Shown here: positions 1 through 20,000 of the stretch, piece by piece
Layout of the letters: each line of letters opens with the position of its first letter
How positions within the stretch are numbered: the stretch's first letter is position 1
Assembly: GCA_964255285.1 (NCBI GenBank)
Contig: CAXUUL010000014.1
Location: 49,403 to 69,402 of the forward strand
Reading direction: 5' to 3'
Source: Ionaspis alba
Taxonomy: Eukaryota
DNA: 20,000 nucleotides
The notes under the pieces: model-generated
Databases searched by the model: none
Seen by the model: only the letters and a program-made list of their open reading frames with translations
Told to the model about the DNA's origin: nothing
Program-made: the position numbers and the translations under genes

Positions 1-868
1 ATTTTAGATTTCCGGAGACCAAGTCAAGCTGATCGTAGGTGAGATCTCCATCCCACGCGTGTATAGCAGGCGCATCAGGGCGATTTTTGACGTGCCGGCT
101 GATTTCTCCGTGAACGGTGGACTCCACACTCTGTCGGATACCGCTGTTCCACGCAACAATTTGGTCAAGGTCGCGGCCGCTCAAGGACCGAACCTCACCA
201 ATCGTTTGTTTCGGGTTTTCCAATAGGCTCTGAAAGAGAGTGCGGCAGGTGTTGCCCACGTTGAGTATCGCCTCTTTGGTATAGTCGGAGCTTTTGAAGT
301 GGATCTCCAGTATCAATTTCCCCAACCAGTCATTGAAGACTGCTACAAGACCGTTGTGGTACATCTGGGGCAAGTTAGCAAATGGGTGAATGTCTATGGA
401 GGTTGATAATCTCACATGTCGGTGTTCATTCAGCATCTCTCTTTCCTCTGACTCTTTGTCACTACATAGACCTCGTGGCTTCGACTGAGTGTAGAGCATC
501 TTCGTGTTCAGCAGAGGAGTGGCTTCCCACAGGGTGCTGTCTACGACAGATGAAACATGTGCGTAACAAAATTCAACGCTTGAAACGGTCTGTGACTTGG
601 ATATTACTGCAGAGCAGACGTAGCCTGGTTGTGTGTGGAGTTCACCTTTGCTGGTATTGCCCTGTATGCGAAAAGCGACGGTCTCATTCCCTGTATAGAC
701 GCGAAGCACGAGAGCCCAGAGAAGCTCATACAAGTTCAATTGTCCTATGGCTTTCTGAAGTGTATCGAGCTTCGCTTTGTCATTGCAGAGTGAGAAAGTC
801 AATGCTTGAGCCTTACCCGCATGGGTAGTTATTGCATAATCGAGGGTGGGAAATAAACAAGGCTCCAT
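1..868 (-). CDS. Non-ribosomal peptide synthetase, 5' part (degenerate N-terminal C domain, then start of adenylation domain); continues beyond window start
   Basis: Absent from the ORF track because it has no stop in the window. Open frame from ATG 868 (in-frame upstream TAG at about 956-958): MEPCLFPTLDY...LYELLWALVLRVYTGNETVAF...SLLENPKQTIGEVRSLSGRDLDQIVAWNSG...VHGEISRHVKNRPDAPAIHAWDGDLTYDQLD. PCLFP and WALVLRxYTG are typical of fungal NRPS starter C-domain remnants. PDAPAIHAWDGDLTYxxL is the A1 region of fungal A domains. Probable 51-nt in-frame intron 365-415 (GTGAGA..GCTAAC..CAG). Confidence 0.93.
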   Translation of the reverse strand, partial: MEPCLFPTLDYAITTHAGKAQALTFSLCNDKAKLDTLQKAIGQLNLYELLWALVLRVYTGNETVAFRIQGNTSKGELHTQPGYVCSAVISKSQTVSSVEFCYAHVSSVVDSTLWEATPLLNTKMLYTQSKPRGLCSDKESEEREMLNEHRHVRLSTSIDIHPFANLPQMYHNGLVAVFNDWLGKLILEIHFKSSDYTKEAILNVGNTCRTLFQSLLENPKQTIGEVRSLSGRDLDQIVAWNSGIRQSVESTVHGEISRHVKNRPDAPAIHAWDGDLTYDQLDLVSGNLK

Positions 869-2988: not shown

Positions 2989-4139
2989 TTATAGAGTTCC
3001 ATGCTCAACCAAATATCCGCCATCAACTGGGAGAATCACTCCGTTCAGGTACTGACAGCAGGCCACAAACACTACTGCGCTCGCCATATCCATGTGGGTC
3101 CCAACTCTCCCGCTGCTGATGTCTTTAACAGCCGGCCAAGACTCTTCGTCCAGTGTGCTCTTGCCATTCAAACTGGGCGTGCCAGCGGTTATCTCCGACG
3201 GAAATACTCCCGGTGCGATCGAGTTGACGCGGATGTGCAGCTTCATCCTTGCAATCTCCGTCGCAAGCATCTTGGTCACATGGATCGTCGCTGCCTTGGC
3301 CGCGTTGCTCGCAAAATGGTTGAGAGACGTTCTGATGAGGCCGTTGATGCTGCTGATGTTGATTACGCAGCTCTGGTAACCAGGGTGCTTGGGACTGCTG
3401 CCGCGGGCAAGGAGCGGGAGGAAGGCTGTTGTGACAAAGTAATGTGAGGCAGCGTTTGTGCGGTAGACATTTGTCCAGTCGTCAAAGGTGGCATTGGGAT
3501 GGTCGAAGAGATTCGCTCTTGCTTGGGACGCATCTTCGCCTTTGGGTTGCTGCGACGCGCTGTATATGCCCGCATTGTTTATCAAGAGATGTAGAGCCTC
3601 CTCTTTTGTTTCGACTTCATGAGCTAGGCGTCTGTGAAGAAGAACCTGTTAGATCGCTGTCCGAATTGCTGTAATGAGTAACAAACTGCCAAGGAAGCGT
3701 TTGTCTTCTTCTCCTGCCCCTTCTCCTTCGCCGCACCCTCTTACGTTCACCATCTCCACGACCAGCGCCTCGCGTCCTTTGACTGGGAAGTCGATCGTGA
3801 TAGACAAGACTTACTTGATGTCTTCCTTGTTAGCCACATCGCCCACGAGCGGAATGATCTCGCCCCTAATATTCTGGCTGTACACGTCCGCAGCCGTACG
3901 CAACTTGCTCTCTGTCCGCCCAACAATATAAACCTTTGCTCCATTGACTGCGAGAGCCTGTGCAGCCATCAATCCTATTCCAGTGGCCCCGCCCGTAACC
4001 AAAGCCACCTATGTGGAGGGTTAAACTCTATAACGCCGAAATTCTTCTGCTGGAAACACCATACCTTGTGCTCGACGTTGAAAAGAGAATACAGCTCGAA
4101 GTCTGCATTGTCTGTTGCCATGTTCTCTGAGGTGGCCAT
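2989..4139 (-). CDS. Short-chain dehydrogenase/reductase (classical SDR fold), about 303 aa, catalytic Tyr replaced by Ser
   Basis: Exons 4139-4065, 4008-3815 and 3631-2989, with GT-AG introns in consistent phase. Motifs: VALVTGGATGIG, VYIVGRT, LINNAG, VINISS, HFASNAAK (YxxxK position), RVNSIAPGVFPSE, VDGG. Alternative start at ATG 4121. Confidence 0.92.
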
Positions 4140-5447
4140 AGACGTCTCGTGCTGTCTTTCGATGTTGCTTTCTGAGTGTGGAAACAATTCAAAAGCTCAA
4201 GATATGCTCCGATAATACGGGAAGGACCTCTGCTTTATATAGTTGACCAGCATGGCCCAACCAGTAGGCCCGAAGGCGCTGAACCTAAGCCTGTTTTGAA
4301 GTTTCACCATCATGCAGAGTTGGCGTATCAGTTCATCTGGAAAGAAGACGCTCTTCGTTCAAACCGAAAGAACGCTTATGACTATGCTATTGACCATCAG
4401 TTTGGTTTCTAGCTGGATAAGCGGGGTTTTGATGTTTTCGTTTTCCCCCCCAACTAAATGTAGATTACTAGAAAAAAGAATAATGAGCTAAACCCGATGG
4501 AGATTAAGTCCTATGAACTCCAACGTCTTAGCAGCATCGACACAACCCTGATATGCTTCTACTGTTGCTCCGTCACTGAATCGTTGCAGTCCTGATGCAG
4601 TAAAAAGCAGACACTTTGGTTGTGGTTGTGAACCTTTAAGCGTGCAGCAAATGAGACGAGGTGCAAGGGAATAGCGGAGTTCAATCTCAAGGCCATCCTG
4701 CACAGGCTAGACGTCCACTAAGAGTATGCGGGCATGATGCAAAAGACTCCTTGCATTGAGCGGCTCACTTGAAGCAAAATGTCGTGCGGCTCGACTGCTC
4801 ACGTCTGAACTCGTTGTTTCCTAGGCAAACCGATTGTCTCTTACGGGGTCGCCGTCAACTATTACTATTCTTTCGTTTTGAAGGTGTAATCCAAATTCGC
4901 AAAGGAACCACTACTGGGTATATCTGGACACACTCACCACGATTCTCGTTGGCGCCACGGTGTAGTCCTACAACATGATCAGTAGAAGCTTTAAGGATAA
5001 GCTGGAGTCGCCCACTAAGCGATGGTAGACGTTTTGGACTGGCTGGGCCCGTCTCCATTAAAAGTTCCACATCTCTCGACGAACGATGCAAATGAAGAGA
5101 AACACTTGGAGGACCGGGAGAAGTAGGATGAGGTGGTAATAACGGATGAGAGGATTGGAGAGCCATACCACCTGAAGGCTTGCAAGGTAAGTGGATCTCA
5201 AGGCTTTCTGGAGTATGTTGCCTTCGATCTTCCGACTCATGGTGATTTCTGCCTTGCACAAGCGCGCTGAACGCATAATTGTGGGCATGGCTACTAGGTC
5301 GACCATATATGATAGTGTTTCAACAACTAGTATCAATTTCTTGCGACGCTGTGCAGTCTGTATCTATGCATTCCAGCGACGCTTATTCCGGCGATCGCCA
5401 ACCAAGAAAACCCACCTTTCTATCTCGGGCTTTTGTACTATGGGTCA

Positions 5448-6870
5448 CTAGACAGACGCTGCTTCAATAAGGGTCTCGCCTGCACGCGTGTCAGTGTGAA
5501 TCCAGCCATCTTTCTCCGAGACAGCTCACCTCCATCCGGAAAAAGTGTCTGGGCAGTATAGAATGTGCCACCCCTCCCAGCGAGGAAAAGAATTGTGGCT
5601 GCCATGTCAATCTCATGCCCGGCCCGGCCTGCAGCGTTGGTGATAGCTCTCGTCAATTTCGACTTTTGGTCGGGACCTGAGCCACCGGCGGTCATCTGAG
5701 AGCGATTGTAAGCGTGCCTGCCGTGATAGACTATTCTTATTGAGGCGGCTAGGGACTGGATGACAAACCTCGGATGGGAATGTTCCAGGTGCAATCATAT
5801 TGACCCGCACCTTTGTCTGAGAGAACAAGTGCGCCAACATGCGACTCAGGTGAACAAATGCTGGGCAAACATCAGCCTAGGAATCGTGTCTTATCTTTAT
5901 CTGGCGGATTTTCCAACACCTACCGGCTTTTGAAGCCCCGTAGCTGATGTGGCCCCGCGTGGTGTTCTTCAAGAAAGCCGAGTTGCTTGTGACGTTGACC
6001 ACGCTAGAGGTATAACCGGGTATAACGTCACATCCTTGTGCCAATAGCGGAAGAAAGCCGATTGACATGAAATATCCTCCCATACAATTCGTCGTGAAGT
6101 TCTGTTGCCAGCTGACGGGGTCTGACTTCCAGAAATGCTCGGAGATGGCCACCGGATCCTGGAAGTCGGGAGCCGGATTTCCTGCAAACTCGGTAGCGTA
6201 GTCTCTTGCAATACCCGCGTTGTTGACAAGAAGCTGGATGCCGTTTGGCTCTTCGCTTGAGACTTTGTCCACGAGTTTCTTGATCTCGTCCTTCTTGCTA
6301 ATATCAGTAACGATACTAGAACAACGTCGAAGTCAGCAGAAACGAGCTGGATGTCTCTTCCGGCCAAGGGATTTTCCTTGCAATCATGGGAGCCTTTACG
6401 GGATGATCTTGCCAGGGCCGGTGTTGTAAAGCTCCATCACTAAGCGCGGGTGTTAGGACAAAGTGTACAGACGAAAGATTGGTCCCGCATGCTCGGTCTC
6501 GTGCACTGAGATTGGAGCAGTCTAATAAGGATACTATTATACCTACCAACTTTCAGCGCCTCCTCACGAAGCTCAGCGACGTAGACCTTCGCCCCATTGG
6601 ATACCAATGCCTCGAAGTTCTAAGTCAGTCCATGCCCTTCCGAAGTCGAACTGTTCACAATCTCGTGGTGCTTCAAGTCTGTATTACCTGCGTGATCATC
6701 AACCCAATACCACCTGCGCATGGCCATTAGCCTTGCGTTTCTTCGCCTTTGCGATTAGCTCCACAAGATTACTAACTTCCACCTCCTGTAACAACGGCAA
6801 CGACGTGGGAAACGCAGAATATTTTTGAGCTCTGGAGGTCTACATTTGTTCCTGGCTTTGCGAATGCCAT
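5448..6870 (-). CDS. Short-chain dehydrogenase/reductase, about 301 aa, same subfamily as the neighbouring SDR
   Basis: Eight exons: 6870-6777, 6713-6688, 6610 (or 6619)-6547, 6439-6400, 6315-5924, 5860-5769, 5695-5530, 5479-5448. Motifs: VAVVTGGGSGIG, ALVSNGAKVYV, LLVNNAG, VVNVTS, SYGASK, RVNMIAPGTFPSE, FPDGG. Confidence 0.92.
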
Positions 6871-7250
6871 TGTCGCTAACTTGCGCTAACAACCGACAGA
6901 AGGTTCGGAGCAAGAATACCGTTGCTTTAGGTGCGTAGGTATTTGACTCAGCAATTGACTTCAGAGAGTTGAGGACGATATCTTATCGCAAGCAAATGAC
7001 TCCGAACACAATTTCGCGTTGGAAAAACTCCATGGGAAGCTGTCACTGCATTTGGGAGAAAAGCAAATGAGCCAACATCGACTTTTCAAGAATCAAAATG
7101 CTTTTGTTTTGCTGCTTTTCTGTACTATGAAAGAATGGAAATGATGAGTTAGTATACTTTTCGTCAAACATGCCGAACGCTTTTTGACCTTGAGATTGGG
7201 TTTCTGCTATCCTGATAGGTCGACCTGAGGGATCCGATCCCATAGCTGCA

Positions 7251-9069
7251 TCACGAGGCATGAACCTGGACTCGCGTAAATTGCACCCAGAGTGCGTCCT
7301 CGAGTGAGCCTGGAGAATGGCAGCCAAAAGTCTCGGTGCGGACCGGTTGCGCAGTGAAGTTCGAAAATATCAATGCCAAGATGTATCGCATTACTGGTAA
7401 ACGTTAGTCCCCTTCCTGTCGATCAGTATTTTGACGTGCGGCAACTGACGGTACTGAGACAGATTCGACCCCGCACACATCCTAGGGCCGCTGCAGAAAC
7501 CCCACATCTGGTTCTCGCCACTGCATTTAAGTAGCTTTCCATCGCTGTCCAGCCACCTCTCGGGTATCCACTCGTCCACCCGATCCCACTTCTTCGAATC
7601 CCTGTGCACAAACCACTGGAAAGCGTTGACGCGCACCCTTGGCGGGATACCCTCGATACCAGCGAGCCTGACAGACGAGTTTGCAGGGGTAATGCGTGGG
7701 AGAGGTGTGCTGTTGGGACGCATGCGGAGGGACTCGCAGATGATGGCCGAGAGGTATGGCAGCTCGTCTAGCGTTGCTGCAGAGGGTAGGTGCTGGTCGT
7801 GTAGATTGAAGGAGTCCGAGCTCGACAGGTGGTGCATTTCAGGAGCAGCGGAGGCGATCTCTTCGCGGAGCCGGTGTTGCGCTGTTGGCTTTTGGGAGAG
7901 GTAGTAGAGGGTGTAGGCAAGAACGAGACCTGCAGGATGTAAGACAGTGGAGCTGCCCAGCAGCCTGGCGATATACTAGCTTACCGAGGACTTCCCTGGA
8001 GGATGCTGTATATGTAGGCTCTTAGTGCCTCGAACGCTTTTCAAGAGATCAATACTTACACATGTGGTCGAATAGCTCGCTGGCAACCTCAATTTGTTTG
8101 GAATGGGCATCCAGGTGGCTGGAGTCTTGATCTGTAGCGCCTTTCACACGAGCATAGACGGTGGGAAAGTCTGCGGGGTTTTCTAGAGTCGATCTTTCGC
8201 CCCTCCGCATTGCAGTGTCCGCTGCCTCACACATGGCCATCATCCAAGACTCCATCCACTTCTTCGAAGTTGATGCACGTTTTGGGACTAAGCATACCCC
8301 GACCTTCTCAAGAGTTCTTGTAAGTCGTGGCAACTCCTGGGGCCAGAAGCTCTCCGCGCAGTATCGGTTCTCGTAATGCTCAAGGAATGACTTGATATCC
8401 TCTCCCTTCGTCAAGAATTTGGATCCATTGGACTGGCCGAAGAGGTAGGCGTTGACAAGATCAAGGCACATCGAGTAGCTGAGCTCGAGAAGCTCGGTCT
8501 GCTGGGATGTAAAGGCGTCATTTTCCATCCTCGGGACAAGGCCACCAAAGAGTATCGTCTCCGTGACGGCTGTAAGCTGGGGGGATGTAGAAAGGGCGGA
8601 CTTCGCATACACTGCAGCAATGCGTCGTCTGTGCGTGCTGTGACTTTCCCTGGTCAGGCTGCTAAAGGCATTCTCCATCCTACACCCAGCATCAGCAATG
8701 AAACCGAGCAAGTACGATGGATTCCATGACCTACCCATAGTAGTCAAAGAAGGAATACCACGGAGGCTTGTCAAAGCCTCCATGGTATACAGTCTTGATC
8801 CCATCTTCAAAGCAGCTTACGCTGATGTCTTGGGGTCCGAGCCTGACGATTGGTCCCAATCTTTCATGAGCTTGCCTAACGACATGTAACTCCAGTCTCC
8901 TGTAACGTGTGACAAGAATCCATAGAGAACTCAAGGGCGAGGACCAATGGGCGTTGGGTACCTTGGCCAATGGGGAGATGTGCAGAGGATATACAACGAA
9001 ATGGTAAAGCAAGGAAACACCAACCAATCCAGCCGCTAAGATCACTGCGTAAGAGCCTTGGAAACCCAT
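7251..9069 (-). CDS. Cytochrome P450 monooxygenase, about 532 aa
   Basis: Exons 9069-8735, 8679-8060, 8005-7985 (21-nt mini-exon), 7929-7450, 7393-7251. N-terminal TM anchor plus SPLAKVPNAHW, GPIVRLGP, ExxR (ESLR), PERW, and heme motif FCSGPRMCAG. Confidence 0.96.
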
Positions 9070-9973: not shown

Positions 9974-11263
9974 ATGGCAGTCAACGCTACTTCCAGCTTC
10001 AAACCCTACACCTTACATCCGATGCCGCCTCTGGTTCCCGGGATATCGGATCTACATCTCGCTCTATTCGTCCCTATTGCCGTCCACTGGCTCACCTCGG
10101 GGTGCTTCGAAATTTGTGAGCGAACCGGCTGGCTGGGGCAATATCGGCTGCATACAACCGCGGAGGAGCTCACGAGGAATCGTGTTACACGGCTCGAATG
10201 CCTACGCGTGACGCTTCAATGTCAGGCAAGTCTATTCTTGTGGATTTGGCATTATGCAATACCTGATAAAATACAGGGCCTCCAGACACTCATGGGGCTT
10301 GCGCTAGGTATGCTTGGCGAGGGCGATGTCACGGGAAATGAGGACTACGATCTTGCTGTTTGGATCAGCAGAGTGCATGCTGTCTTTGCAGCACTCCCCA
10401 CACTACTCTACCTCACTGGCGTCGATTTTAAGAAAATGGCGATCACGCCATCTGGATTCGGGTCTTTCCTTCCTACGATAGGACACCCTGAACTTGACAT
10501 GCACAGCATCGAAGTATCGATAGGCACATTGCTGTACCGGTATATTGTACCAGTCTTCCAGCTTGCCTATGCACTGATTATCGCGGATGCCTGCATGTAC
10601 TGTCTTCATCGCCTAGGACATACGAACAAATGGATCTACAGTAAGTCCTGAGACCTCAACCAAAAGGTGTTCAGCACATTGACAAGTCCTAGAACATATA
10701 CACTCCCAACATCATAGGCTGTACGTCCCATATTCATGGGGTGGCTCGTACAATCATCCTGTCGATAGTTTATTCCTTGACGGTCTCAGCTATGGTATCG
10801 GCTGTGGGGTTTCTGGCTTGTCAAACAGGCTGTCTATTATACTTTTCGCCTACTCATCATTCAAGAACGTAACTGACCATTGTGGGTACCTGTTCCCGTG
10901 GAATCCGATCCGCTCGGTCACAGGGACTGATGCCGGCTTCCACGATGTCCATCACCAGAGTTGGGGCTTAAAGGCAAGCTCTCGTGCATCCCACCCAAGC
11001 TGTGAAGGCTAATTTCGACCAAGACAAACTTTGGAGCCCATTTGGCTCTCTGGGATCGTATGATGGGAACTTATTTTGCCGATGAAAAGCAAATTTCAAG
11101 GCTTCGTATGAAGAACCGTGTTGCAGCTCAAGACCTCGTATCCGCACAGGGCGTTAGCACGGACGCAGCGGACTTGGTTCTCCCTCAATGCGACGAGAAG
11201 GCTCTAGGCGGAGAAGGTGGCGGTGACTCAAAGGCTGTAATAACCAGGTCTTTCTTGTGCTGA
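9974..11263 (+). CDS. Sphingolipid C4-hydroxylase-like (Sur2/BasA family) membrane di-iron hydroxylase, paralog A, about 378 aa
   Basis: Exons 9974-10225, 10277-10640, 10693-10973, 11024-11263. Sur2-like N-terminus (YTLHPMPPLVPGISDLHLAL..QYRLHTTAEELTRNRVTR). His boxes HRLGH, HSQHH and HDVHH, plus RLYVPY, YNHP, DHCGY and WDR. Confidence 0.93.
10226..10276 (+). other. GC-AG intron (intron 1 of hydroxylase A)
   Basis: CAG|GCAAGT...CTGAT..ACAG|, 51 nt, in frame. Paralog B has a GT-AG intron at the same codon position (14518-14571). Confidence 0.75.
10974..11023 (+). other. GC-AG intron (intron 3 of hydroxylase A)
   Basis: AAG|GCAAGC...GCTAAT..CAAG|, 50 nt. Required to join WGLK to TNF..WDR. Paralog B has a GT-AG intron at the same position (13775-13826). 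Confidence 0.85.
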
Positions 11264-12090
11264 CGACGAATACCGAGTTGACAGTGGGACTATACCTAGC
11301 GGTCCGGTAAACGGAGACAGATGGCCTAAGTCTGCGCGTCAAATTGCAATCGGGTTTGCGATAGTGCATGGCCAAGTCCAGGCACGCCATGTTGATGTCT
11401 CATGCTATGTAGGTTAGTGATGAGTTCTCAAAAGTAACGCAGAAGGTTTTTTCACCACAGCGCTCACCCGTGATCTGAAAGAGCTCAGTCTAGTTCTAGC
11501 GTAAGAACATTCCAACTTGCAGGTGCGTCGTCTTTTGTTGGCTGTGGAGCATACATTTCACCATTGAGGTAATGTAATGTAGTAACGTGGTGCATGAGTA
11601 TTGGCGCTACTGCTAGTTGACGATTCGGCCAATAGGCATTAGCGTGCGAGGACAATGCTAGGTCATATCATGCTCAAAACGAGACCCCGGCTGCACTGAC
11701 ATGAAGCGGAGGTTGCGCCGATGGTGTCGAGGATATATATACTCTTGGACGTATCACCTGCATGGTCGCGAAGCACAGTACATCCTGAGGATGCAGCAGC
11801 ATGCGGAGGTGAGGAGATCGCGCAATTCCCGCATGATTTTAGTCAGGCGTGGACGGCTTGCGCGATTGAACTTGCCGACCTTGTCAAAAGCTGCGTTGCT
11901 TGTTATCCCGTGAACGTCAACTCATCCTCCCTCATACAATTTTCATGTCCAAGCACCGAGCGCCTATTGTTGTCATAGGGTAGCAAGGCCGACATATGCC
12001 GCCGCTGCACTCGGGATCGATACGAGGTAATCTAAATGCTAGTTTGAGCGTAGCCCAAGGTCTCAAACAGAATTTATTGCATCCCGAGGT

Positions 12091-13184
12091 TTAGGACTCA
12101 ACAGCTTCCTTCAACGACACTTCCAAACCAGTAAATCCTGGCCTGCCGTATCGCCGTAGTAGCTCCTGAGCTCTTTTTGTATCCACAATCTTCAAGTCCC
12201 TCGGTGCATCCTTGATCCTTTCGAATTGCCTACTGCCATCGCCGTAGCCTTCAGCGTCAATTTTCTCCATCAAAACCGCCGTGTCGTTGAAATTGAACGG
12301 GCCCGCGAAAGCCAAAAGCCTTTCCCCTATAACATCCTCTTCAAGTAAAGCCGCAATGTGTAACAGCGCTGTATCTGTCACATTGACGTAATGTTGAGGC
12401 GGGAAGTGATTCCTTAGAAGTTTGAGCGTCTCCGCATCCCCTTCCCACATCTTCTTGTACCAGCCCCCTGTCGACGCTGGCTGCTCCTTGGACAAAATCC
12501 TCCCAATGTTGCAATTTGGTAACACGGCATTGAGGACAAAAGCAGGTTTCTCTTCCTGCATAAAGCGCCAACACTCTTTTTCCGCTAGTGTTTTACTCGC
12601 CGCATATACGGCCAGCTTTCTGTCGTCGTTATAGGGCGGAGGTGCCCATGCGGCTTCAACGTCGGCGTCATTCCAGGAGGATACGTCAATATGGAACTTC
12701 TTGTTCGCTATCGGCGCGGTCGCTGCAGCGGATGAAGACGTGTAGACGAAGCGTTTGACGCTTGGGTTGCGCGCCGCTGCGGTGAGGGCGTTCTTAATTC
12801 CAGACAGCACCATTGGTAGCACTTTATGCGGGTCCGGATTCAGAGTGAGGTCGGAGGCAACGTGTATGACGCCTGCACAGCCTGTCGAGCCTCAGCATGA
12901 CAGTGGTGAGCAGTGCGCGTTTGGAGTACAATCTGACCTTTCATGACCTCGTCGAAGGCACCGCCCGTAGCCATGTCCTTAACGATCTGGACCTCGAACG
13001 CATCCTCGCCGTACTCCTCATCGAAGAGTGCGTGCATATAGTCGGCCTTGTAGGCATCGCGAACGGTACCACGAACACGGTAGCCGTGCTCAAGGAGCTG
13101 TTTGGCGATATGGCTGGCGATATACCCGTTCACGCCTGTGACAAGGACGAGGGATTCTTTGGGGATTGCTGGCATGGTCTTCAT
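12091..13184 (-). CDS. NAD(P)H-dependent carbonyl reductase, extended SDR (aldehyde reductase II/Gre2/Ari1-like), about 345 aa
   Basis: Exons 13184-12938 and 12881-12091. Motifs: VLVTGVNGYIASH, GYRVRGTVR, GVIHVASD, VKRFVYTSSSAA, VYAASK. Confidence 0.93.
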
Positions 13185-13612
13185 TATTAGCCTTGCAACC
13201 TTAGGCTTCTCGAAGGTTATAAGAGGGTTGAATATTGAGATATGTAGAAGTTACTCGAAAAGATTCTGGCCAGCATGACGAGGAAACCGTGACGCGGGTG
13301 TTTTCTGTGACGTAAACCGCAGCCGATTACATTTATAGTACGTGGTAATAAGTATCTACACAGGTCCGTACACGCCAAGGATTAACTAGGCCCACACTCT
13401 CCCCGTGCCAAGGCATCAGCCCTCCTGTCATGCAGGGGTTTTAAACCGGAACCGATTTTGCCTTTACAACGTTTTCGCTACATACTGCATGTTGAGTAGA
13501 CTATGAATGAGGAAGATGTGAGAGTTATTGCTAATACCCTATTGAACGGACAGTGGTGGAAAAGATGTCCGCAAGAGTTTCACGTGAGCATTACTCGCAC
13601 TGCCAATTGGGC

Positions 13613-14832
13613 TCAAGCCAATTTTTCACGGAGATTTGACTTCCTCCCCCTTTCCTTTCCAACCATCTCCGCTGCCTTGCGGTCCCGCGTATATAATCTA
13701 GATGCAGCTTCGGTGTCCGTGAACTCAGTCCCCAGAAGGCGATCCCAGAATCGGAAGTGAAGGGCAAAATTGTTCTGTAAGATATATTAGGAAGAAGGGT
13801 AGGAAGGGGATGAAAAGAGGAGTTACCTTGAAACCCCATCTCTGATGGTGTTTGTCGTGATAAGCAGCGTCGACTGAGGTAAAGAGATCCATTGGATTCC
13901 AAGGAAAGGTATATCCGCCGTGATCGGTACAAGCTTTTGCGGAGGAAAAGGCCGAGAATACCATACTTTCCCTCAATGTCATCCCGGAACCGATGACAGC
14001 AAACACAAAGGCTCCGACGCTGAGAAAAAGGCTCTCGATAGGGTCGTCATAGATTCCGCCCCAACTATAAGTCACGTTCAATCCATGATGACGGGCGTGA
14101 AAATGTTCTACACCATAGCATTGGTCAGTGATCTCTACAGACGTGATCTCACTTACTGTACAACCATTTGTTGCTGTGCTCTGCCCGATGAATGAAGAAG
14201 ACCCACGTATCCGCTAGCCATAGAGCCACGTAGAGTCGTAATGCAGGTATCAGTCCGTAGTAAATGAGTTTAGCCGCTAACAACTCCGCCTCTTGTTCCG
14301 CTCGACCTGACGCGAAGAAAGTTGTGACAGAGACGGAGCGGGAAACGGTAGCGATGAGCGCCTTAACGTTAAGGCCAGAAGATGACAGTAAAGTAAGAAT
14401 CGCTTGTCCAAGAACATGCACTCGACTTGCCCAGATCGTTATATCGCGGCCTTCGTTACCAATTGTCTCTACCTCGGAGAATGCTCCGAGTACGATTCCA
14501 AGACCGGTCTGTAAAATCTAAGGCTTGGAGATTAGGCCAGCTAAAGGCAATGGAAGCAAGTTATAACGTACCTGCACTAAAAGTACGCCACGGAGACACT
14601 CTGATCTGCTGATTGTGTTTTTCGCCGTTTCTTCTTCACTGGTATGAATTCTGTATTGTTGGAAAAACCCAAAATGCTGGAAAATCTCGTAAACGGCAGC
14701 AGTAAGCCAATGTGTGACGACAGGGACCAGTAGTGAAAGGCTGTAATCTGATATTCCTGAAATGAGTGGCGGTCTTGGACGTAAAACATCTTGAAAAGCC
14801 ATGGAGCCTTTTTCTACCATTGTCGATTCCAT
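13613..14832 (-). CDS. Sphingolipid C4-hydroxylase-like (Sur2/BasA family) di-iron hydroxylase, paralog B, about 354 aa
   Basis: Exons 14832-14572, 14517-14157, 14107-13827, 13774-13613. PRPPLISGISDYSLSL, QYRIHTSEEE, His boxes HRAEH, HARHH and HDKHH, DHGGY, FWDR. All three intron positions match paralog A, and exon 3 is 281 nt in both. Confidence 0.93.
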
Positions 14833-15428: not shown

Positions 15429-15833
15429 CTAAGGCCTCGTACCATCCGACTCGACCGGCACCAATTCGCCGGGCATCCACCACACAATCGCAATTTTGCC
15501 CTCGCGGTACTGATAGAACATATGCTCCATGCACTTGACTGTCCCCTGTATGTTGCGTCCCATGAACTCGCGCAGAGGCGTGCATCGGAATTCAATCCTG
15601 CATCCCACCCGCTGCTTAGCCTCGTCCACGAGCAGCATTGATAGTTCAAAGCGGAGGTCTGGGGCCGCATCGATGTCGTCCGTGAGAAGCTTCTCGAAGT
15701 CGGCCAGGGGCATAGAAACATCGTTGAGGGTGACGATGGGGTGGATGTGGTCGCTCAGTCCAGGGAAAGGCCGCTTATTGATAGCAGCGACGTAGGAGAG
15801 GTAGGTTGATTCGAGGGAAGAGGACAGAGCCAT
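15429..15833 (-). CDS. SnoaL-like (NTF2-fold) polyketide/ester cyclase, 134 aa, intronless
   Basis: From ATG 15833: YLSYVAAINKR..HPIVTLND..IDAAPDLRF..LLVDEAKQRVGCRIEFRCTP..FMG..EHMFYQYREGKIAIVW. This matches the SnoaL/ester-cyclase pattern PDLxF..F.G..E..FY.f.dGKI..V. Confidence 0.88.
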   Translation of the reverse strand: MALSSSLESTYLSYVAAINKRPFPGLSDHIHPIVTLNDVSMPLADFEKLLTDDIDAAPDLRFELSMLLVDEAKQRVGCRIEFRCTPLREFMGRNIQGTVKCMEHMFYQYREGKIAIVWWMPGELVPVESDGTRP

Positions 15834-16230: not shown

Positions 16231-17282
16231 ATGTCCGTCCCATTCTCTATGCTCGGTGGCTTTCTCTACCGCCAGCTCCTCGTCACCCCTCCGGTACCTA
16301 GGACTCGATTTGACGGTAAAACCATCATTGTCACTGGCTCTAACGTTGGCCTCGGCCTCGAAGCTGCTCGTCACTTTGGTCGTCTTGGTGCCGCCCGCGT
16401 CATTCTCGCAGTCCGTGATCTTAAGAAGGGCGAGGCTGCGAAGCAGTCTATTGACCAGACCCTCAGCCGCTCTCCGTCTCCTGTTACCGTTTGGAAGCTT
16501 GACCTCTCTAGCTACGGTAGCGTCCAGGAATTCGCGGCGCGTGTCGACAAGGAGCTCGATCGCGTCGACGTGGTCTGCGAGAATGCGGGCATCGCGACTG
16601 GAATCTTCCGCCTCACCGAGAGGGATGAGAGTACCATCACTACTAATGTCGTTAGCACGTTCCTGCTCGCATTCTTGCTGCTACCCAAGCTAAAGGAAAC
16701 GGCACAACGTTTCAACACGCTCCCGACTCTCACTATCACTTCTAGCGAAGTTGTAAGTCATCGCCTCGGTTCCCTATCGGGGCCTCATCCCCTAGCCAGT
16801 CGCTAAAACGTTCTGTCGTACAGCACTCCTTCACGACCTTTCCGGAGCGGAACGAGCCAGACATCTTCGGTACGCTTTCCGATAGATCTAAAGCAAATAT
16901 GGCCGATCGTTACTACGTGAGCAAGCTGCTCGAAGTTTTTGGTGTCCGTGAGATGGCTTCGCGTACCGGCTCCTCTTACCCAGTCACAATCAACTGTCTT
17001 AACCCAGGCTTCTGCCATTCAGAGTTGGGAAGGGAGGCGGGGTGGTATTTGTATATCATGGGACTGCTGCTGGCGCGCTCGACGGAGGTTGGCAGCCGGA
17101 CAATCGTGGCGGCGGCAGAGGCCGGTCCGGGGACGCATGGAATGTATATGAGCGAGAGTTTGGTAACGGAGCCGAGCGAGTTCGTGAGGAGCGAGGAAGG
17201 CGCACGGGTGCAGAAGAAGATATGGGCGGAGTTGACGGCCAAACTGGAGAAAATTATGCCAGGTGTCACGGCCAATCTTTGA
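16231..17282 (+). CDS. Short-chain dehydrogenase/reductase, retinol-dehydrogenase/WWOX-like subfamily, about 326 aa
   Basis: Exons 16231-16752 and 16824-17282 (GTAAGT..CAG intron). Motifs: TIIVTGSNVGLG, VILAVRD, LDLSSY, CENAG, TSSEVH, RYYVSK, LNPGFCHSEL. Confidence 0.94.
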
Positions 17283-17512: not shown

Positions 17513-18896
17513 TCACAAGTGTGGCTCGATGACAGAGCCGTTGATAACAGTCTCAAGTAGTCCGTTTTCATGCTTCGCTTTGAGTTCTGAGGTTGCCACT
17601 AATGCCTCGGCCTGAGTTTGAAACCCGCAGAAGACCGCGATTGACTGCTGAAGTGTTAGTTACATTAGAAAAGCTCCGAAAAAATTTCACTCACGTCTTC
17701 AGTTTTGGCCTTTCCTCTCCCATTAGTCGTATAAGCTCGATAGAACTTGGCTTTGTCATTGATATAGCTCAGCCGCGTGGAACCTGCGGAGAGAGTTTTC
17801 GCAGTACCGTGGAATACGGAACGTGCTTCAAGGCTCTCTTGCGAATCTGTCATTGAAGACAACTCTTCCAACACCTCCCCAGGCAGGGTCATAGCATCGA
17901 CGCCAGCCATGCGGATAACCTCGTCGGTCGTCATGAAAGCGCACGACTTGACTTTGGTAGGGATCCCATGCTGTCTGTAGTATTGTTGGGCTTGTAGAAA
18001 GAGATCAAGGATCGGATCTGAATCGTGGTAGCTGCAATCATCAGCAAGGCATGATTGAGCCGGCAGAGCCCACGTACGACGTATCCAAGTGAGCACGAAG
18101 CTCGTAAGCGAAGGGTGAGATAGAGATACATCCTGCTTCGCCAGCCAAGACGACCTGCTCCATCGTGAAAAGAGTGGTTGCCAATGTCTTGATACCATCG
18201 GTCTTCAGTCTACTGCACGCTTGTAGACCGTCCCAAGTCGCTGGCACTTTCATGATGAGCCTAGACATGTTAAAATCTGGCTCCAAGACGCGACAGATTT
18301 TGTGGAAACCTGAAAAGCTGTCTGTTAGCAAAAGGTGACTCGGGAAAGGTTCACATGGACCAACGGTGGCCGGTTTCGAAGACTTTTTCGGTATCCCAGG
18401 CATACAACGGGTTACACATAACGTGGATCGATCCGGAAATCGATGGGACAATGCGGAGCGAAAGGCTAATCATCTATACCGCTATCAGCTGTGGAATACC
18501 TTAGGCTTATGTGAATGCACTACGTACAGCAATCTCTACGGCAAGCTCTTCGACAGAGACGCTCACATGCTGTCCTTGGAGCTGACGAGCGAGTGCCACA
18601 GATTCCTTCAGAAGAGCCGCATTCTGCGGGTTGCACAATTGACTATACGCCTCCCACTGGGCACCACCGTTAGTATTTTGTCAGTAACGTCAATCCAACT
18701 CACTCGCCTGATTGGAAGTACAGTCTGAAAACGGGCCAAGGTCCGTGGCGACTACAGAGTGATTAGCGTCGCAGACCGAATCTTTAATCTCTGTTTCACC
18801 TTTCAAGTCCAAGCAATCGAGATCAACCGAAGATTTCGAACGCAGATATGCCAAGAGATTGACCGGCGATGCCGGTGGCGAAGTACTGGAAACCAT
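17513..18896 (-). CDS. Transaldolase/fructose-6-phosphate aldolase family (class I aldolase fold), divergent, about 359 aa
   Basis: Seven exons: 18896-18800, 18751-18708, 18656-18528, 18473-18365, 18309-18078, 18031-17695, 17644 (or 17647)-17513. Motifs: VDLDCLD, DCTSNQ, IMKVPATWDG (Schiff-base Lys at 18248-18250), GIKTLATTLFTMEQ, AGCISISPF, AGVDAMTL. Confidence 0.9.
18657..18707 (-). other. GC-AG intron in the transaldolase-like gene
   Basis: AATCAG|GCGAGT...ACTAAC..CCCAG|TGG. Only the GC donor keeps frame (TSNQ-WEAYSQL). The GTGAGT donor 4 nt further in leads to a TAG within 5 codons. Confidence 0.75.
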
Positions 18897-19336
18897 AACA
18901 ATTACACTATTCAGTGTAGATGTGGAGTGAGGTTATGGGGATCCACCTGTTCTTGTATCAGAATCGAGAGGCTGGAAATTGGGGTGCAAAAGTACTCATT
19001 ATCATGAACAAAATGCGGACATGTAGGTGAAAGATTGTAGTATTATTACGGAGGCAGCTCGAGTCTATATCCGGCATGTGATAGCAGGGCGTCTGCAGAG
19101 GTGCATTGTTGTCGTGTCTTTCAAACAGCCGAGCAAGTCCATTCTTAAGAGTTTCCAATGTTTATGTTAGGTATTTCATGCACGCAATACAGCTCTGCAG
19201 GCAGTTTCGGCGAAGCGGTATCAGTGCGCATTAGCGTACAGTCCTCAACCGTGCGTTCTTCCACACCAATGCCATGACGTCCAGAATAAGTGCATATGGC
19301 CCGACGAACTCCTATGGTTCCCTTGGTCTCGTGACT

Positions 19337-19368
19337 TTGGGGACCTTCTTGGGGGCCTTCTTGGGGAC
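19337..19368. repeat. Short 12-bp tandem repeat (about 2.7 copies)
   Basis: TTGGGGACCTTC TTGGGGGCCTTC TTGGGGAC. Confidence 0.7.
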
Positions 19369-19425
19369 TGTCTGACGGCAAAGACGTAGCGAGATTTAGG
19401 CATGAAGAGACCATTTATACTAACT

Positions 19426-20000
19426 TTAATCATCTCCTAGACATCTTGAAGATCCTGTCTGCAAGAGAAGTTCCTCAAGCGTGGTGAAGTTAAGATTCTT
19501 GAAGAATTTGCATCGTTGGCGAATTGTCTTCTCGCGAGGGCATGCACCCGATCCTGTGATCATCATCTCCTCTACACTTGCTAGATAGAGCGCTTCCAAG
19601 TTCTCAGCTGTAGGAGGCAGTAGAGTATCGCGATCGATCTGCTCCTTTGACCTGTAAGTCTTCTCCATGGGTCGACCTGGACCAGGTATCAATTGAAAAC
19701 ATCATTGAAAGAACAAAGCTTCACGAACCGTAAAATTCCTCCATGACTCTCGCCATTTCGTTGAAGGTTGACCATTGACCAGTGACATAGGTTGTGCGCT
19801 CCTGAGAATGTAAGATGCCAGTCGTGAACGCTCTGGCCAGGAGAGTAACCAACCCACTCCGGCGCACTGAGTAGCATGATGAGCGCCTTTGCAATGTCCT
19901 GCGCACTTGTAAAGGATTGCACTTCATCACCAGTGCCTCTGATACATGCCCTCCATCCGTTTGGATCAATTGGAAATTCATCCGGGATTGAAGGCATGTA
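19426..20000 (-). CDS. NmrA-like / isoflavone-reductase-like oxidoreductase, 3' part (5' end outside window)
   Basis: Exons 20000-19854, 19801-19729 and 19676-19426 join to give ..FPIDPNGWRACIRGTGDEVQSFTSAQDIAKALIMLLSAPEWERTTYVTGQWSTFNEMARVMEEFYGRPMEKTYRS..FFKNLNFTTLEELL. This is the typical C-terminal half of atypical SDRs (GxGD..fTs..DiAka..W..tyv.G...T.nE). Confidence 0.8.

Follow-up and report, generated by a model that had tools for sequence, protein, structure and literature searches.

The present work deals with a window of 20,000 nucleotides from Ionaspis alba (assembly GCA_964255285.1, contig CAXUUL010000014.1, positions 49,403 to 69,402) and, within this whole stretch of DNA, with two genes, named here paralogue A and paralogue B, which encode Sur2-like membrane di-iron oxidases of the PF04116 family. 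Both genes are intact and occur in addition to the housekeeping Sur2 gene; their divergence is ancient, and in two fungal classes they are accompanied by one and the same set of enzyme families. They are probably biosynthetic enzymes with different roles. The proposal that their substrate is the cluster's own scaffold, derived from an amino aldehyde, is evenly balanced between acceptance and doubt, and we hold with equal reserve the complete reading developed below, in which A and B would be two non-redundant oxidases of one conserved cluster devoid of polyketide synthase (PKS), acting on an amino-aldehyde-derived, aldol-extended alkaloid. Sur2-like enzymes encoded in clusters are expected to act on lipid chains, and here two conserved ones occur in a cluster without any chain-building gene. 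If this reading is true, it would add a new class of metabolites for lichen fungi; the cluster is compact, apparently complete and present in culturable Ophiocordyceps species, which makes it directly testable.

Structure of the Two Paralogues

The coding sequences of A and B are each interrupted by three predicted introns, located at 10226-10276 (GC-AG), 10641-10692 and 10974-11023 (GC-AG) in A, and at 14571-14518, 14156-14108 and 13826-13775 in B, with phases 0/1/0 and equal aligned positions in both proteins; the first two introns of B recur in the same places in the metagenome contig L013. The two proteins are identical at 140 of 333 positions (42%, E 1e-100), and the single DNA match with E <0.1 is a patch of 68 bases. 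The initial annotation had described two Sur2-like paralogues with three intact His boxes, in agreement with the present results: the nine box histidines (H195, H199, H209, H212, H213, H268, H289, H292 and H293 in A numbering) are kept in A, B and canonical Sur2, exon 3 of A and of B reaches 42.8 and 34.9 bits, respectively, against Pfam PF04116 (cut-off 31), and all six motifs it had quoted, including KNVTDHCGY in A and KACTDHGGY in B, are present as written. A structure model of the A ortholog P0001, with a predicted local distance difference test (pLDDT) score of 90, appears to keep the membrane-helix fold, and its best fold match, a weak one, is the hydroxylase domain of Scs7p (Foldseek E 0.064, Z 5.4, root-mean-square deviation 5.5, 185 aligned residues). 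The nearest clusters in the ESM Atlas are PF04116/SUR2-like, at 0.97, and a sequence search of the PDB gave 0 matches.

GC donors occur in both outer introns of A, and the residues CQAS (P0006, P0018) and WGLKA (P0022) are found in read-through models of its orthologs, which suggests that these donors are conserved among A orthologs and may have led to broken public gene models for many of them.

Relationship to the Housekeeping Sur2

A genome-wide PF04116 search gave 7 matches, and a search of the genome with canonical Sur2 gave 8, three of them on contig C54 and five on A and B. The C54 gene, with its segments GALYNHPLEG, KTVDDHCGY and NFSQPFF, is a canonical Sur2, and A and B are extra copies beside it; the separate housekeeping copy that the initial annotation had proposed to look for is thus present. 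The idea that A or B might itself be the housekeeping Sur2 of this genome was rejected in view of the C54 copy and of the separate branch and separate OrthoMCL rows occupied by A and B.

With the Sur2/Syr2/BasA C4-hydroxylases, A and B share the three His boxes and their nine His, the K...DH.GY signature, the N-terminal membrane helices, and introns 2 and 3. In contrast, the identity to their own Sur2 on C54 is no more than 40% for A and 35% for B, and they fall outside the canonical group and are clustered and patchily distributed whereas Sur2 is a universal single copy. The housekeeping segments GALYNHP.EG, KT.DDH and NFSQP are not found in A and B. In this respect, two arguments of the initial annotation hold in part. 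The common ancestry and the matching intron positions stand, but introns 2 and 3 also occur in the housekeeping Sur2, so that intron 1, confined to A and B and read through by the C54 gene, alone argues specifically for an A+B ancestor. Similarly, NFSQPFF is indeed replaced in both proteins (NFGAHL, NFALHF), but other divergent Sur2 paralogues have lost NFSQP too.

In 31 columns of the alignment, a residue conserved in canonical Sur2 is changed in A, in B or in both, and A and B are set apart from each other by 22 fixed differences around the intact His boxes. Two Gln and one Asn, invariant in the 25 canonical Sur2 rows of the tree described below, are replaced in both A and B, and B alone shows YDHP instead of YNHP and Ser instead of a conserved Asp, each in 17 of 17 B rows. 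The segment HHGLNVTY..DDP of B was rejected as a diagnostic feature, since its G, N-x-T and second D are private to this genome or variable; the 17 orthologs have the consensus HHELYVPYSWGGIYDHP. Purifying selection acts on B, as indicated by a dN/dS of 0.32 for its exons 1-2 against L013. Judged from these comparisons, A and B derive from Sur2 and belong to PF04116, and the tests applied place both outside housekeeping Sur2 orthology.

Ortholog Clades and Age of the Pair

The tree was midpoint-rooted and comprised 67 rows (11 A, 17 B, 25 canonical and 14 other divergent Sur2 sequences), of which 37 were hand-picked from 150 listed. A and B each form a clade supported at 100/100; the two clades are sisters (96/87), with stems of 0.71 and 0.62, and their common branch stands apart from the canonical and the other divergent rows. 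Both clades span the Lecanoromycetes, Sordariomycetes and Leotiomycetes. A recent inverted duplication was rejected on account of these separate ortholog clades and of the shortness of the shared DNA patch, and the tree indicates that A and B are anciently diverged, separately constrained enzymes; the divergence claimed by the initial annotation is thereby supported, as it is by the fixed differences and the selection on B.

A search with exon 3 of B retrieved 21 proteins among 34 candidates, all of them 75-89% identical; the exon 1-2 frame of A retrieved 49 among 328, which are true A orthologs only in part. Of those 49, 24 (P0026-P0049) were rechecked, 12 being about equidistant from A and the housekeeping copy and 8 nearer to the latter, and matches of both kinds were excluded from the A group. 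The search for A homologs used exons 1-2 alone and covered proteins 123-394 residues long, and the lack of an A match in Cercospora, Xanthomendoza and cf. Caloplaca is accordingly not to be read as absence. A metagenome scan matched 70 stretches, one of which, 1.2 kb long and devoid of gene context, was confirmed. Comparison with two DNA runs showed no differences.

Other Sur2-like proteins were encountered along the way. P0026, P0028, P0031, P0033-P0037, P0040 and P0043 are about equally near to A and to the housekeeping Sur2 and apparently lack intron 1; four of these intermediate proteins may share contigs with related genes of the nonribosomal peptide synthetase (NRPS)-like type, and they possibly represent an earlier form of the cluster. 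Further divergent Sur2 paralogues lie on the same contig as a related adenylation-thiolation-reduction (A-T-R) enzyme (P0233 and P0179; P0237, P0224 and P0211). This is so in Amylocarpus, on a contig of 48,555 bases, and in Byssothecium, which possesses an adjacent pair, KAF1960675/76, on a 1.57-Mb contig; another adjacent pair, RB597_010420/010421, occurs in Gaeumannomyces. Sur2 pairs beside NRPS-like genes may therefore have arisen more than once.

The Cluster in Ionaspis alba and in Other Fungi

To the left of A are found a cytochrome P450 (P450), two short-chain dehydrogenases (SDRs), an NRPS-like gene and a major facilitator superfamily (MFS) transporter, followed by housekeeping-looking genes; to the right of B come a SnoaL gene, an SDR, a transaldolase-family gene and an NmrA-like gene cut by the contig end. 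This uncharacterised cluster is shared by fungi as far apart as the lichen-forming Teloschistales and Ophiocordyceps. A single contig holds the NRPS-like gene, A and B, under locus tags close in number, in Ikaeria aurantiellina (Q9222_003532/003528/003526), O. australis (CDD81_2587/2582/2580), O. camponoti-leonardi and O. polyrhachis-furcata. Close tags on one contig are also shown by A and B in Seirophora lacunosa, and by the NRPS-like gene and B in Xanthomendoza, cf. Caloplaca, O. unilateralis and O. camponoti-saundersi. Two Cercospora species also contain B, and Ustilaginoidea virens contains A.

The housekeeping Sur2 row of a published ortholog table was identified through what we take to be the identity of its Candida gene. 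This table (PMC5624889) covers 23 genomes and is used here for the rows listed; the presumed housekeeping row is present in 23 of 23 genomes, whereas 4 genomes contain A, and those 4 are also the ones with B. In O. kimflemingiae, the order given by that table is permease (3393), NRPS-like (3394), P450 (3396), NmrA (3397), A (3398), SnoaL (3399), B (3400), SDR (3401), transaldolase (3402), SDR (3403), SDR (3404) and epimerase-type reductase (3405), so that Ophio5|3393-3405 matches the window cluster family for family; among the rows listed, none holds Ophio5|3395. A gene set that differs little from this one is found in O. australis and O. sinensis, with no NRPS-like row for O. sinensis among those listed. 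The inverted arrangement of A and B around a reductase, put forward by the initial annotation, exists in the window, where A (+) and B (-) are convergent with the reductase between them, but it is not conserved, since SnoaL stands between A and B in O. kimflemingiae, O. australis and O. sinensis (PMC5624889). In Xanthomendoza, the reductase and B are fused in one gene model (P0076).

According to the rows listed in PMC5624889, Hirsutella minnesotensis (HIM_05244-05254) and O. subramanianii (Hirsu2|7670-7679) have the cluster without separate A and B genes, all gene numbers being accounted for, and 1 of 8 members of the NmrA row, perhaps a fused model, bears PF04116. On the basis of these two Ophiocordycipitaceae clusters, A and B look like optional tailoring steps. 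The same table contains, as side observations, a second partial set in H. minnesotensis (HIM_11170-11174: ketoreductase (KR)-type SDR, reductase, SDR and SnoaL) and, in O. subramanianii, a second transaldolase-like gene adjoining a member of the NRPS-like row (Hirsu2|3731-3732). Searches of an open-access library brought to light neither a product nor a study of this cluster, and no account of its product was found in what was available of PMC7341126, PMC4625970 and PMC11057048.

Backbone and Transaldolase-Like Enzymes

The backbone is an amino-acid-type A-T-R enzyme, preceded by a condensation (C) domain of which only a remnant is left. Although the lichen and Ophiocordyceps orthologs are only about 41% identical, the pocket motifs of their adenylation domains are the same, including an Asp which, by the numbering we assume, is the one that binds the alpha-amino group. 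Fungal piperazine clusters include lna and hql. In clusters of the piperazine kind, amino-aldehyde formation and imine reduction are the documented tasks of an A-T-R enzyme paired with an NmrA-like reductase, as described in the available parts of PMC13047030, and the cps and flz clusters treated there have the A-T-R backbone, the NmrA-like reductase and the P450 in common with the A/B cluster. The same pair is found here, NmrA being labelled by Pfam in Ophiocordyceps and assigned by correspondence in I. alba. Beyond the piperazine clusters, the A/B cluster comprises an atypical transaldolase, SnoaL, four further reductases and the two Sur2-like enzymes, none of which is named as a tailoring enzyme in those parts of PMC13047030.

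The transaldolase-like gene is extra to a housekeeping transaldolase on contig C484. With TalB and FSA it shares PF00923, the Schiff-base Lys and the SPF motif, but it differs from TalB and from its own housekeeping copy by the changes SPFVGR to SPFAYE, GASFR to SCAFM, and STEVD to HVMCN. If the residue roles are those we assume from TalB, the Schiff-base Lys is kept while both phosphate-binding Arg positions and the acid/base Glu are replaced, and these replacements suggest that the substrates are non-phosphorylated. Iminosugar precursors are obtained in vitro with FSA, a related aldolase (PMC11848910). The wider fungal family to which the transaldolase-like enzyme belongs (row 6815 of PMC5624889) looks uncharacterised as far as that source goes, and this protein may be the most novel enzyme of the cluster.

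Expression in Manipulated Ants

The "secondary metabolism cluster 33" of O. unilateralis s.l. (kimflemingiae) in PMC4545319 agrees in families and in their order with Ophio5|3396-3405, the stretch that holds the A and B orthologs; its name is an automatic annotation label, and the available main-text passages of that paper neither discuss the cluster nor name a product. For cluster 33 and its neighbour, PMC4545319 lists g353 (P450), g354 (NmrA), g355 (FA_hydroxylase), g360 and g361 (SDRs), and g362 (aldehyde reductase II). These six genes map to the Ophio5 numbers with a constant offset of 3043 and matching families, an agreement of gene order, and not of sequence, which marks g355 as the A ortholog. 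For g355, the expression values are 0.97 in culture, 457 in manipulated biting ants (472-fold higher) and 440 after death; four other cluster genes are up 178- to 231-fold, and the P450 passes from 0 to 12.5 (PMC4545319, tables available). Six cluster genes, including the A ortholog, which are silent in culture, thus show strong induction once the fungus manipulates the ant, and the product is an unexamined candidate among the metabolites of that interaction.

Ophio1_1|g768, an NRPS-like gene up 374-fold in the same tables, was rejected as a member of the A/B cluster, since it belongs to cluster 9 with a DMAT gene. O. unilateralis g767-g769, encoding DMAT, an A-T-R NRPS-like enzyme and an aminoacyl-transferase-type pyridoxal phosphate enzyme, are strongly induced in biting too (PMC4545319).

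Proposed Pathway and Alternative Explanations

The pathway that we favour consists of chemical steps each of which is inferred. The A-T-R enzyme would activate an alpha-amino acid and release it as an amino aldehyde, to which the atypical transaldolase would add a non-phosphorylated ketol unit of the dihydroxyacetone type by means of its Schiff-base Lys. The amine would then close on the ketone, and the NmrA-like enzyme, the SDRs and the aldehyde reductase would set the redox state and the stereochemistry, with the help of SnoaL. Late oxidations would be performed by the P450, A and B, the latter two differing in the position or the type (hydroxylation or desaturation) of their reaction. In its natural substrate, Sur2 attacks the carbon adjacent to an amino-diol head, and an amino-polyol intermediate would be similar to such a head. 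A more precise version, unlikely as it stands, would be an undescribed fungal route in which the NRPS-like reductase hands an amino aldehyde to a transaldolase-derived aldolase, giving a polyhydroxy alkaloid, iminosugar-like or sphingoid-mimicking, whose non-lipid scaffold is oxidised at two sites by the Sur2-derived pair.

Several observations weigh against the alkaloid pathway, the strongest being that, to our knowledge, characterised PF04116 enzymes act on lipophilic substrates and fit a small polar alkaloid poorly, which makes a lipid borrowed from primary metabolism a serious rival. In Scytalidium, A and B lie on different contigs. The transaldolase-like family also occurs in fungi without A/B rows (7 further genes in 6 genomes in row 6815, among the rows listed in PMC5624889), and its odd residues need not, in consequence, be specific to the pathway. 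The differential-expression tables of PMC4545319 in which A is listed contain neither g350-352 nor g356-359, which by gene order include the NRPS-like gene (g351), SnoaL (g356), B (g357), an SDR (g358) and the transaldolase (g359). According to the same tables, A stays high after the death of the host when others fall, and the MFS gene g349 falls, contrary to a simple co-induction.

The rival that survives best, possible though unlikely on the whole, supposes that A and B oxidise a lipid taken from primary metabolism, such as a sphingoid base, a ceramide or a fatty chain, which is then joined to the amino aldehyde, e.g., by NmrA-like reductive amination, or secreted. SphC (sphingofungin), VlmA (verlamelin) and Ahd1 (ustilagic acid) are cluster-encoded Sur2-like tailoring hydroxylases acting on chains derived from PKS or fatty acids, and together with Sur2 they form a precedent within the family for lipid substrates. 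An extra PF04116 copy in a biosynthetic cluster is common to these systems and to A and B, whereas the latter are two and no chain supply is found within their cluster; a supply from elsewhere in the genome is possible. The membrane-helix fold apparently kept in the P0001 model would also suit a lipid, and a weak hint is given by sphingosine, which was enriched 2.6-fold in the secretomes of O. unilateralis grown next to the brains of its host, and for which the authors consider an ant origin possible (PMC4174324, part available). In contrast, the stretch which begins with the MFS gene and extends past the permease that follows the NmrA-like gene showed no PKS, fatty acid synthase (FAS), acyl-CoA ligase or acyltransferase gene, and neither did four Ophiocordycipitaceae gene lists; the C domain is a remnant, and the Gln and Asn residues invariant in canonical Sur2 have been replaced in both enzymes. 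The lipid-chain substrate advanced by the initial annotation is therefore not borne out by the gene content of the cluster.

Self-protection, the alternative considered by the initial annotation, would have one or both copies keep or remodel the C4-hydroxylation of sphingolipids in the presence of the cluster product, either by serving as a target copy that resists it or by shielding the membrane. A and B do duplicate a housekeeping gene within a cluster, A is highly expressed after the death of the host (PMC4545319), and a Sur2 homologue in an A. terreus cluster has been flagged in this sense as a proposal (PMC12616698), although the cluster table in the available part of the same paper contains no "C4-hydroxylase" row. 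The low identity to their own Sur2 and the loss of conserved sites fit this pattern less well, two separately fixed copies exceed the need, and the clusters of H. minnesotensis and O. subramanianii lack a separate A or B gene, the single PF04116 in the NmrA row notwithstanding (PMC5624889, rows listed), so that self-protection, weakened in this way, appears distinctly improbable. A further reading, in which A and B merely raise the gene dosage without differing in function, or drift as remnants of an inverted duplication in place, might be suggested by their opposite orientation, their close spacing and the existence of cluster copies lacking separate A/B genes, but it is hardly credible in view of their separate clades in three fungal classes, the 22 fixed differences, the purifying selection on B and the non-conserved layout.

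Gene Inventory and Ends of the Cluster

The genes of the window, which is the right end of contig C14 in an assembly of 18.3 Mb and 1282 contigs, are collected in Table 1.

Table 1. Predicted genes of the A/B cluster in the window (strand relative to the window as read)
Feature	Position	Strand	Remarks
NRPS-like backbone, 5' part (partial C-A-T-R)	1-868	-	continues left of the window to L008:6825
Short-chain dehydrogenase 1	2989-4139	-	start approximate
Short-chain dehydrogenase 2	5438-6880	-	bounds approximate
Cytochrome P450	7250-9069	-	end approximate
Paralogue A, Sur2-like di-iron oxidase	9974-11263	+	378 aa, 3 introns, intact, PF04116
Aldehyde-reductase-II-like NAD(P)H reductase (epimerase/NAD_binding_4)	12091-13184	-	one intron 12937-12882, start approximate
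Paralogue B, Sur2-like di-iron oxidase	14832-13613	-	354 aa, 3 introns, intact, PF04116
SnoaL/NTF2-like protein	15429-15833	-
Short-chain dehydrogenase 3, KR-type	16231-17282	+
Atypical transaldolase-family enzyme (PF00923)	17515-18896	-	end approximate
NmrA-like reductase, 3' part	19426-20000	-	cut by contig end; 5' part on overlapping contig C827 (L051)

The NmrA-like assignment relies on a reductase-like frame and on the matching NmrA slot in Ophiocordyceps, with no Pfam match for the piece in the window nor, among those listed, for C827. A transcription factor belonging to the cluster was not recognised. Between the MFS and NRPS-like genes, about 3.5 kb (L008:3320-6820) gave no Pfam match among the open reading frames tested. 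A PKS past the contig end was rejected as a candidate, C827 showing only the rest of the reductase, the amino-acid permease which follows its 5' part, and unrelated sequence. C827 (L051:1-1154) overlaps positions 18865-20000 of the window over 1154 bases at 95.6% identity, with insertions and deletions in a short tandem repeat, and the join thus lies between two haplotypes or strains.

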